Of a DNA stretch of 64,000 nt, positions 43,163 through 53,397 are shown piece by piece. The stretch's first letter is position 1. Each line of letters begins with the position of its first letter. This stretch comes from an uncultured Bacilli bacterium. GTDB lineage: Bacteria > Bacillota_I > Bacilli_A > RF39 > UBA660. Below the pieces are notes generated by a model. The model did not search any database. It saw only the letters and a list, made by a program, of their open reading frames with translations, and had not been told where the DNA came from. The translations under genes and the position numbers were made by a program. The stretch lies in NCBI GenBank assembly GCA_963931545.1, contig OZ007025.1:137145-201144 (forward strand), written 5' to 3'.

Positions 43163-43245
43163 TTTTTATTGTTTTGTTTGCTAGAATATACTTGCATTTA
43201 AATTTCTATGACTTGTTTTAGTCATGGCGGAAGGAGAAGGTAAAT

Positions 43246-46479: not shown

Positions 46480-47277
46480 ATGAATGAATATGAACCAAAT
46501 CCAAAATTACAGAATTTAGTTAATCAACCTAAAAAAAACAATAATAAGATACTTTTTATTTTAATTGGAGTTATTGTTTTACTTATATTTATTATTTTTA
46601 TAATGTCACTTGGTGGTAAGAAGGTTATTGAAAGAGAAGTAGAAAAGAAGCAGAGTTTAGATGAGATATCTACAGAAATTAGATATTTTATTGACATTAA
46701 TAAGTTAGATGCTTTGGATGCTTTTGGATATGATAATTTAGCTAGAGTGGCAATTAATGAAATATGTTATGGGGTTGACAACTGTAAATCTATTCAAGGA
46801 AGTGCGGTAAGGGAATATATTAGTAATATATTTGATACTGAAGTAACTTTTTCGAATATTAACTGCGAGCTTGGCGATGGTGTTATTTACACTTATGATA
46901 GTAAAAACGATAAATTTGTTTTTACTGGGGAACATGCTCATGGTGGGATAGGTACTAAACCTATTTACACTAAGGTTAATAGTATTAAAAGAAAAGGTGA
47001 TAAGATAGAACTTATTTTAAATAAACTGTATTATAATCCTGAAAGGACTGATTATATTACAACTGACCCATTTGGTGTTAATAGGGTTTATAACTCTAAA
47101 GATTATATGCATACCGTTGAAGGTGGTGAAGATGTTGATTTAACAAAATTATCAGCTAATTATGAAAATAATTTTGATGAATTAAAAAATGTTGGAACAA
47201 GATATAAATATTTATTTGTTAAAAAAGATGGTCATTATGTTTTAGAAAAATATGAGATAATTACTGAGGAAGAGTAG
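46480..47277 (+). CDS. Hypothetical membrane-anchored protein
   Basis: One N-terminal TM and no family signal. Confidence 0.5.
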   Translation: MNEYEPNPKLQNLVNQPKKNNNKILFILIGVIVLLIFIIFIMSLGGKKVIEREVEKKQSLDEISTEIRYFIDINKLDALDAFGYDNLARVAINEICYGVDNCKSIQGSAVREYISNIFDTEVTFSNINCELGDGVIYTYDSKNDKFVFTGEHAHGGIGTKPIYTKVNSIKRKGDKIELILNKLYYNPERTDYITTDPFGVNRVYNSKDYMHTVEGGEDVDLTKLSANYENNFDELKNVGTRYKYLFVKKDGHYVLEKYEIITEEE

Positions 47278-47455
47278 GCTTTTAGGGTTTACTTTTTTTG
47301 TTATGAGGGGTGATTTTTTTAACAATATATATTGAAAATGTCGTTAATTTTTGTTATCATTATTATGGCACAATATGGTATCAAAAAAGTTGCTTACTTA
47401 AGTGTGGTTTATTCATACCTTTGTGTTTGCAATTAAAAGTGGAGAGGAGGATTTT

Positions 47456-48010
47456 ATGGAAAAGAAAATTAGTTATTCAGGAGTTATTATTACGGTACTT
47501 GCTGTGGCTATATTAGTTATGTCAGTGGGGTTTGCGGTATTTAGTGCAAATATTAATTTTAATGGTACAGCTAATGTTTCTAGTACTAGGTGGAATGTAT
47601 TTTTAGATGAAAGTACTTATCAAAAAACAGAAGGTAGTGTAGAATCTGTTAGTGAGCCTACTATTAATACTAATTCAATGACTTATAGTGTTAATTTAAC
47701 TAAACCTGGTGATTTTTATGAATTTACTATTCATGTAAAAAACACTGGTTCATTTAATGCAAAATTGAAAAGCCTTACTATGACTGATATTTCTGAACAT
47801 TCTAATTACTTGAAATATACAATTACCTATGCTGGTACACCTTATACTAGCTCTAATTCTAGTTTATCTATTCCACTTAATGCTGGAACTGGTGATGAGG
47901 AAGTTAAAGTAAGAGTTGAATATGTTCAACCTTTACAGGCTACTGATTTACCTAGTGAACTTAAGGCTATTACTTTAAATGCAGCTTTTGATTATGAACA
48001 AGTAGCTTAA
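47456..48010 (+). CDS. TasA/camelysin-like protein with a SipW-cognate-type signal peptide
   Basis: GGAGAGGAGG ribosome-binding site. The signal-peptide end VMSVGFAVFSANINFNGTA resembles the G-T-[FW]-A-x-F-[ST]-D class. NLTKPGDFYEFTIHVKNTGSFNAKLK resembles the TasA NLKPGDKLTKDFQFENNGSLAIK block. Confidence 0.6.
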   Translation: MEKKISYSGVIITVLAVAILVMSVGFAVFSANINFNGTANVSSTRWNVFLDESTYQKTEGSVESVSEPTINTNSMTYSVNLTKPGDFYEFTIHVKNTGSFNAKLKSLTMTDISEHSNYLKYTITYAGTPYTSSNSSLSIPLNAGTGDEEVKVRVEYVQPLQATDLPSELKAITLNAAFDYEQVA

Positions 48011-48021
48011 GTATAGTGTTT

Positions 48022-48051
48022 TAGCTATTCTATTTTTAAATAGAATAGCTA
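48022..48051 (+). promoter_or_regulatory. Perfect 14-bp inverted repeat between the TasA-like and SipW-like genes
   Basis: TAGCTATTCTATTT-TT-AAATAGAATAGCTA with no T-run after it. It could be an attenuator or RNA-stability hairpin, or an operator. Confidence 0.5.
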
Positions 48052-48066
48052 AAGCTCATTATTCAT

Positions 48067-49194
48067 ATGGAAAAATATAAAAATTTATATATTACAGAAG
48101 TTTTAATACTTTTGATTTATATAGTTTTGAAACTTTTGTGTATGAATCAGCCTTTCTTTTTACAGTATTTTGATGCTATATATTTTTGTTTAATTTTTAT
48201 TTATTTTTATTTTAAATATGGAATAGCTAGAGATAAAAATTATTATACAAAAATAAGTGTTAGATATATAATTATATTTTTACTTTTATATGTCTTAATC
48301 ATTTATGGTTTGGGCCTTTTTATGGGGTTTACTAAAACTATATATGATAATAGTTTGGCTTTAATTTTAAAAAATGCATTACCAATTACTATTTTAGTTA
48401 TTTTTAGAGAATTAACGAGATTTATAGTTGCTTATAATAGTAAAAAAAATATGAAACCTATTATATTATTGACTATTATTTATATATTATTTGACTGTTT
48501 TAGTGGATTTGTTAGTTCTTCTTTTAATTCATTTTATAATATATTTCAGCTTGTTTGTTTAACTATATTACCTTCTATATCTAAACATATGCTTTTAAGT
48601 TATTTAACTTATAAGATTAACTGTTTTCCTTCTTTGGTATATAGTTTACCTATGGAAGTTTTAATATATGTATTACCTTTTTTCCCTAATTTAGGTGATT
48701 ATTTAACGGCTGTTATATCATTATTTTTACCTTTTTGTATATATTTGTTTATTAAAAAATTACTTAGTTATGATGAAAAGGAAGTTTTGAAGATTCATGG
48801 CTTATTTATTAAGATATTTATGATAATTACTATAACATTTTTAATTATAATAATTATACTTGTATCTGGAATTTTTAAATATAAAATGATTGCAATTGCT
48901 TCTGATTCAATGAACCCTATTTATTATAGAGGAGATGCTATTATATATGAAAAGGTTAGTTTAGATGAACTTCAGAAAAATGATATTTTAGTTTTTGAAT
49001 ATAATAATTCTGTTGTTACTCATAGGATTATTAATATTATAGAAGAAAATGGTCAAAAATATTTTCAAACTAAAGGGGATAACAACTCTAAAGCTGATTT
49101 GAATTTGGTATCTATGAACGATGTTTTAGGTAAGGTTAAATATATTGTTAAATATATTGGTTTTCCTACAGTATGGTTTAATGAAACGTTTTAA
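48067..49194 (+). CDS. SipW-type (S26B, Ser/His) signal peptidase I fused to a roughly 250-aa N-terminal polytopic membrane domain
   Basis: The C-terminal 100 aa carry SDSMNP (catalytic Ser box), VTHRIINI (His box) and TKGDNN (Asp box), typical of archaeal/eukaryotic-type SipW. Residues 1-275 form about 7 hydrophobic helices. The alternative start at ATG 48820 (MIITITFL...) would give a canonical single-TM SipW of about 124 aa, but no ribosome-binding site is evident there. Confidence 0.65.
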   Translation: MEKYKNLYITEVLILLIYIVLKLLCMNQPFFLQYFDAIYFCLIFIYFYFKYGIARDKNYYTKISVRYIIIFLLLYVLIIYGLGLFMGFTKTIYDNSLALILKNALPITILVIFRELTRFIVAYNSKKNMKPIILLTIIYILFDCFSGFVSSSFNSFYNIFQLVCLTILPSISKHMLLSYLTYKINCFPSLVYSLPMEVLIYVLPFFPNLGDYLTAVISLFLPFCIYLFIKKLLSYDEKEVLKIHGLFIKIFMIITITFLIIIIILVSGIFKYKMIAIASDSMNPIYYRGDAIIYEKVSLDELQKNDILVFEYNNSVVTHRIINIIEENGQKYFQTKGDNNSKADLNLVSMNDVLGKVKYIVKYIGFPTVWFNETF

Positions 49195-49209: not shown

Positions 49210-50268
49210 ATGAAAAAAAGAAAAATTGACAAACTTATAATAGTGGCTATTATATCTGCTTTGTGTTCTTTTTTAGCTTTAAACTTAGCTAGACTTGGTT
49301 TTCGTAATTATAATGAGAGGATAATTAATTATAATGAAGATTCAAAAATTAATTATCAAGTTCATTTGAAGTCTAATGATTTTTTTCAAAATGAATTTTT
49401 GCCAGAAAATATGTCTTACGTTACTAGTTTAATTGATTATATAAAATTGAATTTTGATTATAATTTGAATTTCGATAAGGAGTTAAGTGGAACATATTCT
49501 TATTATATAAAAGCTACTATGGACGCTAATAAGGAAAATAGTGATAGTAAGTTTTATACTAAAGATTATATTTTAAGTGATGTTAAAACCGAAAAATTTG
49601 ATGATAAGAAAAAAATTAATATAAAAGAAAGTATCGATGTTGATTATGATACTTATAATGATGTTTTAATTGCTTTTAGGGACGAATATGGCGTTCAAAT
49701 GGATGGTAATTTGGATGTTAGTTTGGTTGTTGAAAGTACTTTTAATGATAAAGTTAGTGGGGAAGATGCTGGCAAGAAAAGTGAAACTAGTCTTAATATT
49801 CCTTTAACTACTTTAACTGTTGAAGTTCCTATTGAAAAGGATAATAAGGTAAATAGTGGGATTTTACTTTCGACTAAAATTACTAAAGAAGGGTTTATTT
49901 ATAATGTATTTAGAGTTTTAGCTATTATTTGTTATATAGCGGCCTTTACTTTTCTTTTATATTTTATTTATTTAACTTATTTGAGTTTTAAATTAGAAAA
50001 CGCTTATGTTAAAAAATTAAAGAAAATATTAAAGGTATATGATGGTATTATTGTAAATGTTAAGAAAAAACCTAGTATGGATAATAATAAAGTTGTTTGG
50101 GTTTCTAGTTTTGAAGAATTGATAGATGCTCACGGAGAGGTTAGAAATCCAATTAATTATATTCAAGAAAAAGATGGTGCTTTGTTTTTATTAGTTAGTG
50201 AGAGTTATATTTATGCTTATAAATTAAGAAGAGAACTTTTTGTGCGTGAGGAGAAAATCAATGTTTAA
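49210..50268 (+). CDS. DUF5305-like bitopic membrane protein (SipW-locus associated)
   Basis: N-terminal TM, a roughly 200-aa extracytoplasmic segment, a second TM (VLAIICYIAAFTFLLYFIYL) and a roughly 100-aa cytoplasmic tail. From memory, proteins with this architecture co-occur with SipW and camelysin genes. Confidence 0.4.
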   Translation: MKKRKIDKLIIVAIISALCSFLALNLARLGFRNYNERIINYNEDSKINYQVHLKSNDFFQNEFLPENMSYVTSLIDYIKLNFDYNLNFDKELSGTYSYYIKATMDANKENSDSKFYTKDYILSDVKTEKFDDKKKINIKESIDVDYDTYNDVLIAFRDEYGVQMDGNLDVSLVVESTFNDKVSGEDAGKKSETSLNIPLTTLTVEVPIEKDNKVNSGILLSTKITKEGFIYNVFRVLAIICYIAAFTFLLYFIYLTYLSFKLENAYVKKLKKILKVYDGIIVNVKKKPSMDNNKVVWVSSFEELIDAHGEVRNPINYIQEKDGALFLLVSESYIYAYKLRRELFVREEKINV

Positions 50269-52624
50269 GTTTTTTAAAAAAAATATAATTCTCATGCTTT
50301 TTTGTTTTGCTTTTTGTTTAATGAGTGTTGGGTATGCTTTATATGGTGAGACAGTTAATTTAAATGGAAATATTACTTTGCAAAAAGTAGGTAGAATTGA
50401 AATTACTAGTGCTTCTATTGTGAGTGGTGAGTGCAGTAATATTAGTAATTATGGTAATCCTACTTATAATGGATTACATATTGATTTTAAATTTAACACG
50501 AGAAGTAAGAATTTTACGGCTACTTATTTGGTTACGGTTACAAATAATTCTAATGTTCCTTATACTTATACTGGTACTTTAATAAATTCTAATATTATTA
50601 TTAGTGGTAGTACATATACACCGATGCTTAGCTCTACTTTGACTTATGCAGATAGTGGCGCTTTATTTGAAAATGGTGAATCTATTGATGTTGGTGAGTC
50701 TGTTAATTTAAAGATAAAAATGGATTTTGAAATCGAGCAAAATCCTAGTACTATGAATGTTAGTGGTGGTGTTGATTTTTCTGTTTCACAGGATAATACT
50801 GGTAGTTTAATTCCTTCTATTACCCCTTTAACTGGTAATTTAAGAGGTGATGGAACAATAGCACCTTTTACTTTAAAAGTTATTAATACTTTTAAGTATA
50901 ATAGAAGTTTTAGTTTGTCTTCTAGTAACGAAAATATCATTATAGTTGATAGTAATGGAAGTAGTTTAAATAATTTTACTATTCCTGCTAATTCTACGAA
51001 TGAATATACTATATATTTAATGGTTAAAAAAGGTAGTATATTTTTAACTGATAAAACTGATACAAATATTATATTATCTTCTAGGATGATTGATGATATA
51101 AATGTTGGTAAAATTGATTTGGATGTTGACAAGGATATTAATGCAACTGATTATGAAAAACCTGAAATTGGTAATGTTAATATTAAAATAAGTGAAAGTA
51201 ATCCGGTTGATGGTGAGGCTATTATTTCTTGGACACGTTTGGATAGTGGTGGATCATCAATTATTAATTATTATATTGAACTTGTTAATGTTGATAGTGG
51301 TGAGGTTAAAAAATATGAAACAGGTTCTTCTATAACTAGTTATACGGCTACTGGACTTAGTGCTGGTAATTATTATGCTAGAGTTTATGGTGAAGATGAG
51401 GCTGGAAATATTGGCTCTGATGACTGCTCAGTCGGAAATAGTTATTGTCCTAGTTCTGATGAAGTTTATTTGAGATGGGTATTTAATGTAACTAATGAAA
51501 TTGATAGATATTTAAGGTTTGATGGTGAGCCAACTGCTAATATATATACTAGTTATGAGATGAATCTTAGTGTACAAACTGGTTGGAGACTTCCTGATAC
51601 GGTGGAAATAACTATGGGTGGTGTTACTTTAGTTAGTGGAACTGATTATACGTATGATGCAAGTACTGGCCGAATTGTGATTAACAAGGTTACTGGTGAT
51701 ATATTTTTGAAAGCACATAGCCAAAATGGTTGTTTGGTGGAAGGAACTAAAATTAAATTAGCTGATGGTAGTTATAAAAATATTGAGGATATCGATTATG
51801 ATGATTTACTAATGGTATATAATCATGAAAACGGTGGTATTACTTATGAATATCCAATTTGGATTGAAAAGGTTAAAAAAGCTGATTCTTATGAGAAAAT
51901 TACTTTTAGTGATGGTTCTTATTTAAATACATGGGGACCTCATAGTTTGTTTAGTTATGATAAGATGGATTATGTTAATGTATTAATTCCTGATGATTTC
52001 CATGTAGGAACTAAGATTGTTAAAATTGTTAATGGTAAGATAAAAATAGTAGGTGTTGTTAAAATTGAAACTATTAATGATGAGATAAATTATTATCATG
52101 TTTCTTCTACTAGATATCATAATGTGATTGCTAACGATGTACTTACTACGGATGGTACTGGTGTGACAATGTATTTATATAATTTTAATGATGATTTAAC
52201 TTGGGGTAATGCTAGAGATGAATTTTTAGCTAAAAATGATTTATTTACTTATGAATATTTAAAACCTATTTTTCCTAAATATTTGTATTATGGTTATAGA
52301 ATGGCTGAGGGTAAAAATCCTTATAATCAAGGTAAGTTATTTATTGATAATATTGCTTATTTATTAAATAAAAATAATACTAAAGAAATTTTTAAGGATA
52401 AAGATAATAATAATTTATGGATGGTTACAACTAGTGATGATTTGGTTAATCCTTTTAATAAGAAAAAATATTTAAGAAAAGAAGATAGTTATTATACTTT
52501 ACCTATACCTAAAAATAAAAATAAATTTATTGGTTGGTTAAATACTGGTGATAATAAGATTTATAAACCTTTTGATAAGGTTAAAGTTTTACATGGTATG
52601 CATTTTGTTGCTAAATACGAATAG
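50261..52624 (+). CDS. Secreted 787-aa multidomain protein: SipW-cognate-type signal, TasA-like beta domains, FN3 domain, Hint (intein-like) autoprocessing domain, unknown C-terminal module
   Basis: GAGGAG ribosome-binding site. The signal MFKFFKKNIILMLFCFAFCLMSVGYALYGETVNLNG is paralogous to that of ORF 47456. FN3-like WTRLDSGGSSIINYYIELVNVDSGE...TATGLSAGNYYARVYGEDEAGN lies at about nt 51160-51445. Hint block A CLVEGTKIKLADGSYKNIEDIDYDDLL starts at nt 51731. A TWGPH block B and a YHNVIANDVLT block F-like motif follow. The C-terminal roughly 140 aa are uncharacterised. Confidence 0.7.
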   Translation: MFKFFKKNIILMLFCFAFCLMSVGYALYGETVNLNGNITLQKVGRIEITSASIVSGECSNISNYGNPTYNGLHIDFKFNTRSKNFTATYLVTVTNNSNVPYTYTGTLINSNIIISGSTYTPMLSSTLTYADSGALFENGESIDVGESVNLKIKMDFEIEQNPSTMNVSGGVDFSVSQDNTGSLIPSITPLTGNLRGDGTIAPFTLKVINTFKYNRSFSLSSSNENIIIVDSNGSSLNNFTIPANSTNEYTIYLMVKKGSIFLTDKTDTNIILSSRMIDDINVGKIDLDVDKDINATDYEKPEIGNVNIKISESNPVDGEAIISWTRLDSGGSSIINYYIELVNVDSGEVKKYETGSSITSYTATGLSAGNYYARVYGEDEAGNIGSDDCSVGNSYCPSSDEVYLRWVFNVTNEIDRYLRFDGEPTANIYTSYEMNLSVQTGWRLPDTVEITMGGVTLVSGTDYTYDASTGRIVINKVTGDIFLKAHSQNGCLVEGTKIKLADGSYKNIEDIDYDDLLMVYNHENGGITYEYPIWIEKVKKADSYEKITFSDGSYLNTWGPHSLFSYDKMDYVNVLIPDDFHVGTKIVKIVNGKIKIVGVVKIETINDEINYYHVSSTRYHNVIANDVLTTDGTGVTMYLYNFNDDLTWGNARDEFLAKNDLFTYEYLKPIFPKYLYYGYRMAEGKNPYNQGKLFIDNIAYLLNKNNTKEIFKDKDNNNLWMVTTSDDLVNPFNKKKYLRKEDSYYTLPIPKNKNKFIGWLNTGDNKIYKPFDKVKVLHGMHFVAKYE

Positions 52625-52743
52625 TGTTAGTTATTTACTAGCGCTATTTTATTTTTAAATCATTAATTATTTTAAAAATGTCGCTGCTCTATTATAATTT
52701 AATTTTATTATAATTATTATAGATTTATATTAGTGGTGAAACT

Positions 52744-53397
52744 ATGAAAAATAAGTATAATATGACTAAAGAAGATAATATATTTTTTGCTAAAAGAAAG
52801 TTAGTAGATAATATATATAAAAGTGCTAATTTAGAAGGAATTGCTGTTGCTTTTGCTGATATATATGCTTTTATGAATAATGTTAACACAGGTAATATTT
52901 CTGTGGATGATATGCTTAAACTTAAGGGACTTAAAGATGCTTGGGAATATGTTTTGAATAGTGTAGATGAAGAATTAACGATAGATTATATTAAAAAAAT
53001 TCATTTTGAAATTTGTAAAGGTCAAAATATTTATCCTTTAGGTGATTTTAGAAAGTGTGGTGTAGGTATTACTGGTACATCTTGGAGGCCTAAACTTCCC
53101 AGTGAATGTGATTATGAGGCTGAATTAAATGAGTTATTTAATATTTCTTCTGAAATAGATAGATGCATTAGTATATTTTGCTGGATACAAAGAAGTCAGA
53201 TGTTTTTAGATGGTAATAAAAGAGTAGCTAATTTGGTTGCTAATAAAGAGATGATTAAAAATGGTCAGGGTGTTATTGCTATTTCTGTAGAGAAAATTGG
53301 CGATTATATGGTTAGGTTAATTAAATATTATGAAACTAATGATATGTCAGAAATTAAAAAATGGATATATGATAATTGTATTGATGGTATTAATTAA
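52744..53397 (+). CDS. Fic/Doc-family protein with a degenerate active-site motif (SQMFLDGNKRVA)
   Basis: Motif FCWIQRSQMFLDGNKRVANLVAN aligns to Doc HIFNDANKRTA and Fic HPFxDGNGR. It has the Doc-type NKR, but the motif His is replaced by Gln. Confidence 0.55.
   Translation: MKNKYNMTKEDNIFFAKRKLVDNIYKSANLEGIAVAFADIYAFMNNVNTGNISVDDMLKLKGLKDAWEYVLNSVDEELTIDYIKKIHFEICKGQNIYPLGDFRKCGVGITGTSWRPKLPSECDYEAELNELFNISSEIDRCISIFCWIQRSQMFLDGNKRVANLVANKEMIKNGQGVIAISVEKIGDYMVRLIKYYETNDMSEIKKWIYDNCIDGIN

Follow-up and report, generated by a model that had tools for sequence, protein, structure and literature searches.

A signal peptidase fused to a CPBP-like membrane domain at a probable fibre-assembly locus of an uncultured Bacilli bacterium

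Donor-strand fibres of the TasA, AbpX and Tafi types are emerging, in both bacteria and archaea, as one of the major classes of filament on cell surfaces and in biofilms. The Bacillus subtilis signal peptidase of TasA and TapA, SipW, is a protein of about 190 amino acids (aa) with one N-terminal anchor and a C-terminal helix. Three papers tie a DUF5305 protein and a dedicated signal peptidase to fibres of the TasA superfamily (PMC11821415; PMC12337348; bioRxiv 10.64898/2026.01.04.697558). In Haloarcula, the peptidase TafD has four transmembrane (TM) helices and is required for the processing of TafA (PMC11821415), while TafG is the DUF5305 protein (PMC11821415; PMC12337348). A 2026 preprint on AbpX devotes one sentence to a "ten-TM" signal peptidase I at AbpX loci and treats DUF5305 as an accessory, with no mention of a CPBP or CAAX fold (bioRxiv 10.64898/2026.01.04.697558). 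Here, we analyse a gene at positions 48067 to 49194 of a 64,000-nucleotide stretch of DNA from an uncultured Bacilli bacterium (assembly GCA_963931545.1, contig OZ007025.1, positions 137,145 to 201,144 of the forward strand), referred to below as the window. It encodes a SipW-like signal peptidase preceded, in the same polypeptide, by a polytopic membrane domain, and is probably the dedicated signal peptidase of a fibre operon of the TasA/AbpX superfamily, with a CPBP-fold domain that acts as a non-catalytic platform.

The CPBP (CAAX protease and bacteriocin-processing, Abi) membrane proteins are relevant to this proposal as partners of other enzymes. Active CPBP proteases require the three motifs EExxxR, FxxxH and HxxxN/D (PMC12260438). 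In Staphylococcus aureus, the degenerate CAAX-protease-like protein SpbR binds the signal peptidase SpsB and inhibits cleavage in vivo as well as in vitro, and an AlphaFold2 model of the pair places the contacts at the TM helix and the extracellular domain of SpsB (PMC12260438). SpdC and LnsB are further non-catalytic CPBP partners of membrane enzymes (PMC12260438). Our literature searches found no description of a fusion between a CPBP protein and a signal peptidase. The gene in the window is organised as follows:

48067..49194, plus strand: peptidase-fusion open reading frame (ORF), ATG start, 375 codons, free of internal stops
48067..48792, plus strand: membrane domain of eight helices (aa 1-242), CPBP/Rce1/SpdC fold with degenerate motifs, from the predicted structure
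48793..48867, plus strand: TM helix 9 (aa 243-267), by which the peptidase is anchored (N-in/C-out signal anchor), from hydropathy, the model and family matches
48868..49194, plus strand: extracytoplasmic signal peptidase I domain (aa 268-375 and the stop codon) of the archaeal/endoplasmic reticulum (ER) type

The fusion is real, a single conserved polypeptide and not the product of a frameshift. Searched against 5.8 billion proteins, the 375-aa protein gave 774 matches; nearly all of the best 120 are 370-387 aa long and align with the whole of the query (100%) at 38-99% identity, and homologues of full length number more than 110, with identities as low as 38%. Fourteen contigs that derive from different samples and assemblers, the longest of 1.36 Mb, encode the 375-aa protein in identical form. 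We compared gene order at 65 loci from species-representative genomes, and in 64 of them the peptidase ORF is full length (369-395 aa), with shorter versions confined to one locus (L003, 211 aa) and to fragments at contig ends. A separate upstream membrane-protein gene followed by a short SipW is thus not the pattern at orthologous loci, and the fusion that the first-pass annotation had suggested from the letters alone is borne out by homologues, loci and contigs. Its description of the fusion as unusual holds only relative to textbook SipW, as the architecture is widespread in metagenomes and is mentioned in the 2026 preprint. The N-terminal domain also travels with the peptidase when it is searched on its own. 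A profile of this domain matched 1,284 clusters at E <= 1e-3 and 826 at E <= 1e-10 among 1.84 billion cluster representatives; 119 of the 145 further proteins listed for it are 350-400 aa long, and among the top 150 cluster representatives the domain almost never occurs without the peptidase. Residue conservation was read from an alignment of 114 full-length sequences, with a second set of 29. In the 114 sequences, G52, Y75, Y80, G83, F85, G87, F88, N103, P106, E115, R118, T136, F160, F162, Y179, P188, P204, P207, L209, G210, Y212, P222, K231, Y235 and K238 of the N-terminal domain are invariant or nearly so, and the domain is therefore under constraint at the protein level.

The peptidase motifs SDSMNP (aa 279-284), THRIINI (aa 318-324) and KGDNN (aa 336-340) all lie within the last 100 residues of the 375-aa frame, as first annotated. 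The same annotation had noted that neither the ATG at 48067 nor an internal ATG at 48820 has a good Shine-Dalgarno sequence and had left the gene boundary uncertain. We likewise find no Shine-Dalgarno sequence 5′ of either codon, but the boundary itself can be settled from the orthologues. The long start at 48067 is the real one because similarity to homologues begins at residue 1 of the query and runs over the full length, several orthologous loci carry GGAGG or AGGTGA 5′ of the equivalent start, and independent gene callers give 375 aa for this gene (and 184, 352 and 787 aa for its three neighbours in the cassette described below). That 48067 lacks a Shine-Dalgarno sequence is a peculiarity of this locus.

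Some related gene calls depart from this architecture. Matches to the N-terminal domain of only 200-290 aa were considered as stand-alone or split genes and rejected; they end mid-helix or run into unrelated sequence, and for that reason look like truncated or chimeric gene calls. Two longer proteins (P0258, 812 aa; P0121, 463 aa) consist of the N-terminal domain and the start of the peptidase domain followed by unrelated sequence, and look like chimeric or misassembled gene calls as opposed to new architectures. At L003, a close relative, the peptidase ORF is just 211 aa (L003:8294-8929) and the DUF5305 gene is seemingly joined to the large protein that follows it (L003:8944-10659, 571 aa); a frameshift in this copy, its degradation or faulty assembly probably accounts for the difference.

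The C-terminal domain is predicted to be an active signal peptidase I of the archaeal/ER type (TIGR02228; MEROPS S26B) with an intact Ser-His-Asp set. Ser281 (48907-48909) and His319 (49021-49023) are read directly from the codons, together with Asp338 and Asp344, and all four residues are invariant in the 114 homologues, where the general base is His and not Lys. The NCBIfam model for archaeal-type signal peptidase I, TIGR02228, aligns to aa 252-370 with 89.1 bits (cut-off 51.85) and Pfam Peptidase_S26 matches aa 253-314 with 27.5 bits (cut-off 22.9), both matches thereby covering part of the anchor helix, while the SipW equivalog NF046067 reaches 69.6 bits against a cut-off of 190. Since TIGR02228 passes and the equivalog does not, the enzyme is, as judged from these family scores, SipW-like in type and not a SipW orthologue. 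The anchor is the highest hydropathy peak of the protein (248-266) and forms a helix at 243-267 in the AlphaFold model. Neither hydropathy nor the model gives a C-terminal TM helix. Loops rich in Lys and Arg at 50-66, 114-130, 173-185 and 230-249 follow the positive-inside pattern, with the N-terminus in the cytoplasm and aa 268-375 outside.

Ahead of the anchor, hydropathy and two AlphaFold models agree on eight helices (2-25, 29-51, 60-86, 97-124, 130-150, 156-183, 186-202 and 210-234) where about seven had first been counted, for a total of nine TM helices with the anchor. The AlphaFold2 model of the full-length protein has a pLDDT of 87.1 and a pTM of 0.80, and that of the N-terminal domain alone a pLDDT of 87.5 and a pTM of 0.85. 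In predicted structure, the domain has the eight-helix Rce1-type fold and matches SpdC and Rce1 specifically, at about 10% sequence identity. No catalogued sequence family covers it: aa 1-245 gave zero Pfam or NCBIfam matches, including CPBP, exosortase/archaeosortase, VanZ and rhomboid, in the full protein and in 29 N-terminal domains; PF02517 matched none of the 29 even at E up to 10; and a profile of the domain found no PDB sequence at E up to 10. The earlier view of a region without recognisable family therefore stands for sequence, by Pfam, NCBIfam and the PDB profile, and fails for fold, which is CPBP/Rce1-like. Among the families then listed as candidates (CPBP, exosortase/archaeosortase and VanZ-like), it is CPBP that the fold favours, and the models indicate a CPBP fold for which sequence comparison detects no similarity. 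We also considered, and rejected, an exosortase-like Cys/Arg/His enzyme, as conserved Cys and His are absent and the fold match is to SpdC and Rce1.

Helix 4 of this domain carries the motif [R/K]-E115-x-x-R118, in which Glu115 (48409-48411) and Arg118 (48418-48420) show at least 90% conservation or are invariant throughout the family, with a spacing that differs from the EExxxR of CPBP motif 1. Helix 5 carries Y139-x-x-x-D143. The two segments, R-E115-L-T-R118 and Y139-I-L-F-D143, appear to resemble the degenerate HELYMR and FIYLD of SpbR. No His or Cys is found among the invariant or at least 90%-conserved columns of aa 1-245 in either the 114 or the 29 sequences, and CPBP motifs 2 (FxxxH) and 3 (HxxxN/D) are therefore absent under any alignment. 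The most conserved motifs of the domain lie elsewhere: LGLFTGF (83-88) and P204-x-x-P207-x-LG are placed by the model in two extracytoplasmic loops beside the peptidase domain. G83, G87, F88, N103, E115, R118, P204, P207, G210, P222 and K238 are retained in homologues that range from 27% to 99% identity and come from two phyla.

The peptidase gene is embedded in a four-gene cassette, which comprises the following features:

47332..47360, plus strand: promoter-like site, TTGAAA-17-TATCAT with a TG extension, candidate operon promoter (consensus scan 10/12, extended -10)
47456..48010, plus strand: precursor of the major fibre subunit, 184 aa, AbpX/TasA-superfamily-like (profile, hhalign)
48018..48055, plus strand: perfect 17-bp stem-loop between the subunit and peptidase genes (minimum free energy -21.6 kcal/mol, z -5.1, 0/200 shuffles as stable)
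49210..50268, plus strand: DUF5305 protein, 352 aa, TM helices 5-30 and 228-260 (PF17231, 65.5 bits, cut-off 29, E 6e-18)
50261..52624, plus strand: second substrate, 787 aa, with an MSVGYA signal, a subunit-like N-terminal domain, FN3 and Hint (hidden Markov model (HMM), PDB, Pfam)
52619..52649, plus strand: terminator-like hairpin and T-run at the end of the cassette (pattern scan)

The subunit has a signal peptide at aa 1-27 (47456-47536) that ends in MSVGFA, with Ala27 invariant, and cleavage after Ala27 is predicted to leave an N-terminal donor strand (VFSANINFNGTANV...). A profile of 39 subunit orthologues searched against the PDB placed AbpX at the top (9sj2_C, E 0.0036; 9rhp_A, E 0.027), and aligned with the AbpX family by hhalign (probability 89.5%, E 2e-6), the subunit has its G25-F26-A27 over the T-Y-A of AbpX, which terminates the 54-residue AbpX signal sequence (bioRxiv 10.64898/2026.01.04.697558). 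A cut after Ala27 would give Val or Ala at P1′ and Phe or Tyr at P2′ in most orthologues, and the aromatic P2′ of TasA has been reported to be incompatible with LepB (PMC10269814). The motif MSVG[FY]A occurs in just two ORFs of the window, that of the subunit and that of the 787-aa protein. The latter matches the subunit HMM (E 2.2e-11) and carries a Hint module of the intein/hedgehog type at about aa 491-637 in which Cys491, His561 and Asn621 are invariant; the FN3 and Hint assignments are supported by PDB entry 6y75_A (E 1.2e-6) and by Pfam fn3 and Hint matches in 13 and 9, respectively, of 33 orthologues. It is probably a tip, anchor or adhesin component, and a Hint module in such a protein suggests autoprocessing or covalent attachment chemistry. 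The DUF5305 protein has the expected architecture of two TM helices flanking an extracellular domain and, by analogy with TafG, is proposed to be an accessory subunit of the signal peptidase (PMC11821415; PMC12337348; bioRxiv 10.64898/2026.01.04.697558).

How does this locus compare with the systems described so far? The closest is that of the archaeon Pyrodictium abyssi, whose enzyme (WP_338249487.1) is 380 aa long against 375 here and is encoded downstream of abpX, as the present gene lies beside an AbpX-like subunit. In both, a polytopic N-terminal region of about 250 aa precedes the S26 domain (267-370 in P. abyssi and 262-367 here; hhalign E 7.5e-17), and a G-F is followed 27 residues on by R-E-x-x-R, in register. 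DUF5305 is likewise found at many AbpX loci. The preprint, however, describes ten TM helices where the present protein has nine and no C-terminal helix, and the host of the archaeal enzyme is a hyperthermophile while ours is an AT-rich gut bacterium (26-28% GC). Between the N-terminal regions themselves, hhalign gave a non-significant E of 0.06 and a probability of 0.9%. The homologue search for the archaeal enzyme yielded seven proteins, too few for a good profile, and this archaeal profile did not match the bridging proteins P0274 and P0275 significantly. P0274 (394 aa), found via the archaeal peptidase domain, scores 46 bits with the N-terminal domain profile of the present family against at most 7.5 bits for shuffled sequences. 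Both bridging proteins have a C-terminal helix, and P0274 would then have ten.

The better-known fibre peptidases are more distant in architecture. SipW is also a Ser-His peptidase of the archaeal/ER type, is operon-linked to a donor-strand-exchange fibre subunit and faces an aromatic P2′, but the present enzyme has eight extra helices, lacks the C-terminal helix and is partnered by a DUF5305 protein in place of TapA. The haloarchaeal Tat-fimbriae cluster shares the combination of a dedicated signal peptidase I (TafD) and a DUF5305 protein (TafG) with a TasA-like fibre, while TafD has its peptidase domain at the N-terminus, an extra C-terminal extracellular domain, substrates of the Tat pathway and no CPBP-like domain. 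SpbR-SpsB offers the parallel for the membrane domain, in that a degenerate, polytopic CPBP protein partners a type I signal peptidase. There, in contrast, SpbR is a separate polypeptide, SpsB is a Ser-Lys (LepB-type) enzyme, the effect is inhibition and the context is lipoteichoic acid synthesis as opposed to fibre assembly. Other proteins of this fold, SpdC (LyrA) with SagB, Rce1, and APH-1 in gamma-secretase, are set apart by an identity of about 10% and by the missing Pfam CPBP match here; moreover, SpdC and APH-1 partner a glucosaminidase or presenilin, and Rce1, which has all of the motifs, is an active protease. SEC11 with SPCS1-3, the signal peptidase complex of eukaryotes, differs in that the extra helices here belong to the same polypeptide and have the CPBP fold, with no homology to SPCS1-3 detected.

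In the mechanism we propose, the peptidase domain would cleave after the invariant Ala of MSVG[FY]A in both secreted proteins that flank it in the cassette, whose aromatic P2′, as in TasA, would be handled poorly by the housekeeping LepB. Cleavage would free an N-terminal strand and so permit polymerisation by donor-strand complementation. The CPBP-fold domain would act as an intramembrane platform fixed to the peptidase, and is most likely non-catalytic because both His-containing catalytic motifs are lost. By analogy, this platform could dock the signal-anchor helix of the substrate, the two-TM DUF5305 partner, or both, and position or gate the active site. The logic would be that of the degenerate CPBP proteins that serve single-pass hydrolases in trans (SpbR-SpsB and SpdC-SagB), here made covalent. 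We base the platform idea on the conserved motifs in loops beside the peptidase, the high pTM of the full-length model and these precedents.

Several observations weigh against this proposal. The CPBP fold is assigned from predicted structures with a weak Foldseek E (0.14), and neither the PDB profile search nor Pfam on the 29 N-terminal domains found a link to CPBP at the sequence level. The near-invariance of Glu115-x-x-Arg118 implies that a specific function or structural constraint persists; the pair may correspond to CPBP motif 1, and the domain could, formally, retain some residual catalysis. Homology of the domain to the N-terminal region of the P. abyssi enzyme was not significant in hmmsearch with shuffled controls, and the link between the subunit and AbpX is moderate (probability 89.5%, E 2e-6).

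Among the alternatives, the least improbable, although still unlikely, is that the CPBP-like domain inhibits or regulates the peptidase from within the same chain, as SpbR does SpsB in trans, and keeps it off until DUF5305 or a substrate engages, in place of serving as a docking platform. SpbR binds its peptidase through TM and extracellular contacts and inhibits it in vivo and in vitro (PMC12260438), the LGLFTGF (83-88) and P204-x-x-P207-x-LG loops are placed beside the peptidase domain on the extracytoplasmic side, and the full-length pTM of 0.80 suggests a fixed interdomain arrangement. It is not obvious, however, why a dedicated peptidase that shares an operon with its substrates would need an inhibitor attached to it covalently and for good. 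Such regulation is a variant of the platform explanation and not a contradiction of it.

A second, active intramembrane protease, which would clear the cleaved signal peptide or trim subunits and make this a two-protease enzyme, is improbable. The fold is that of Rce1, a glutamate-dependent protease, and the helix 4 pair Glu115/Arg118, at least 90% conserved or invariant, persists as LEFIR in the distant P0274 and as REMVR in P. abyssi. CPBP catalysis, on the other hand, also needs FxxxH and HxxxN/D (PMC12260438), while no His is conserved in aa 1-245; the spacing is E-x-x-R and not E-E-x-x-x-R; and the CPBP proteins with similarly degenerate motifs, SpdC, LnsB and SpbR, are non-catalytic (PMC12260438).

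Less probable again is an enlarged but neutral membrane anchor, or an Abi-type immunity function fused by chance. CPBP/Abi proteins do have diverse roles, including bacteriocin immunity. Against this reading, the specific residues listed above persist over the range of 27% to 99% identity and across two phyla, the top 150 cluster representatives almost never have the domain apart from the peptidase, and the cassette context is invariant. Hardly credible, and refuted by the data, is a long ORF in which a short SipW gene has become joined to a membrane-protein gene through a frameshift or an error of assembly, or a true start at 48820: the missing Shine-Dalgarno sequence 5′ of 48067 and the 211-aa version at L003 speak for it, while the identical protein on 14 independent contigs, the more than 110 homologues of full length (identity as low as 38%) with N-terminal residues conserved at the protein level, the fused architecture in 64 of 65 loci, a good Shine-Dalgarno sequence at the equivalent long start in orthologues and the equal lack of one 5′ of 48820 speak against it.

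Returning to the platform explanation, a more far-reaching form of it can be offered tentatively. It is hypothesized that the CPBP domain, the peptidase and the DUF5305 protein together make up a complete machine in the membrane, the prokaryotic equivalent of the signal peptidase complex of eukaryotes, whose action goes beyond cleavage: the CPBP-like cavity would capture the basic n-region and the helix of the class-specific signal peptide and pass the new N-terminal strand directly to the growing fibre. If this were true, cleavage would be coupled to donor-strand polymerisation, in effect supplying the missing assembly platform of TasA/AbpX-type fibres, and the partnership of CPBP proteins with signal peptidases, seen in trans in SpbR-SpsB, would be ancient and widespread.

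Parts of this picture are already known, and the system is not categorically new: polytopic peptidases at AbpX loci are mentioned in the 2026 preprint, and CPBP pseudo-proteases are known as partners of signal peptidases in trans. What appears to be new is the CPBP fold for the extra helices, the size and phyletic range of the family in uncultured gut organisms, and the four-gene cassette with its Hint-containing second substrate. The fused peptidase ties the fibre field to the CPBP pseudo-proteases that bind and control signal peptidases, as SpbR does SpsB, and provides a natural single-chain model for structural study of the interaction. Should the platform idea be true, it would also offer a way to approach how fibres are assembled in organisms that are so far beyond culture.

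The cassette amounts to a compact four-gene fibre system in a large group of uncultured gut and rumen Bacilli and Clostridia, and apparently also in Saccharibacteria. Across the 65 loci, the DUF5305 gene directly follows the peptidase in 64, a secreted protein of about 185 aa precedes the peptidase in 55 and a protein of about 790 aa follows DUF5305 in 38, and this order holds between 70% and 27% identity. All hosts are uncultured metagenome-assembled genomes, mostly of AT-rich gut or rumen Bacilli (labelled Tenericutes, Erysipelotrichaceae or Clostridium sp. CAG:710) with some Clostridia. Seven loci (L023, L024, L026, L039, L042, L045 and L057) have the subunit-peptidase-DUF5305 cassette on contigs whose record titles label them Candidatus Saccharibacteria or Nanosyncoccaceae. 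These contigs have 39-43% GC, compared with 24-35% in the sampled Bacilli and Clostridia loci, and the cassettes under these labels, with their distinct GC, imply spread across phyla. The GC content of the window is 26-33%. Its only Rfam match, an L31-Firmicutes ribosomal protein leader (RF03156) at 43206-43236 (34.6 bits, gathering threshold 33.3), is consistent with a Bacillota host.

The stem-loop at 48018..48055 recurs in kind, as most orthologous loci whose spacer is at least 40 nt long have a strong hairpin, of unrelated sequence, at this intergenic site. A pattern scan scored it as terminator-like with a weak T tail, and it is probably a partial terminator or an mRNA stabiliser that sets a high ratio of subunit to machinery; the structure being kept without conservation of sequence suggests attenuation or mRNA stabilisation, and with it over-production of the subunit. 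The candidate promoter at 47332..47360 is a pattern match alone, and such sites are no more numerous in the region than expected from shuffled sequence.

The cassette is flanked by two genes of narrow distribution. Directly upstream, window positions 46480-47277 encode a 265-aa single-pass membrane protein whose conservation extends only to L001 and L003, the two closest relatives; since it is limited to these, has no family assignment and lacks MSVG[FY]A, it probably lies outside the cassette. Directly downstream, a 217-aa ORF at 52744-53397, tentatively labelled 'fic' by its look, is conserved at 91-93% in the same two relatives and not in the other loci.

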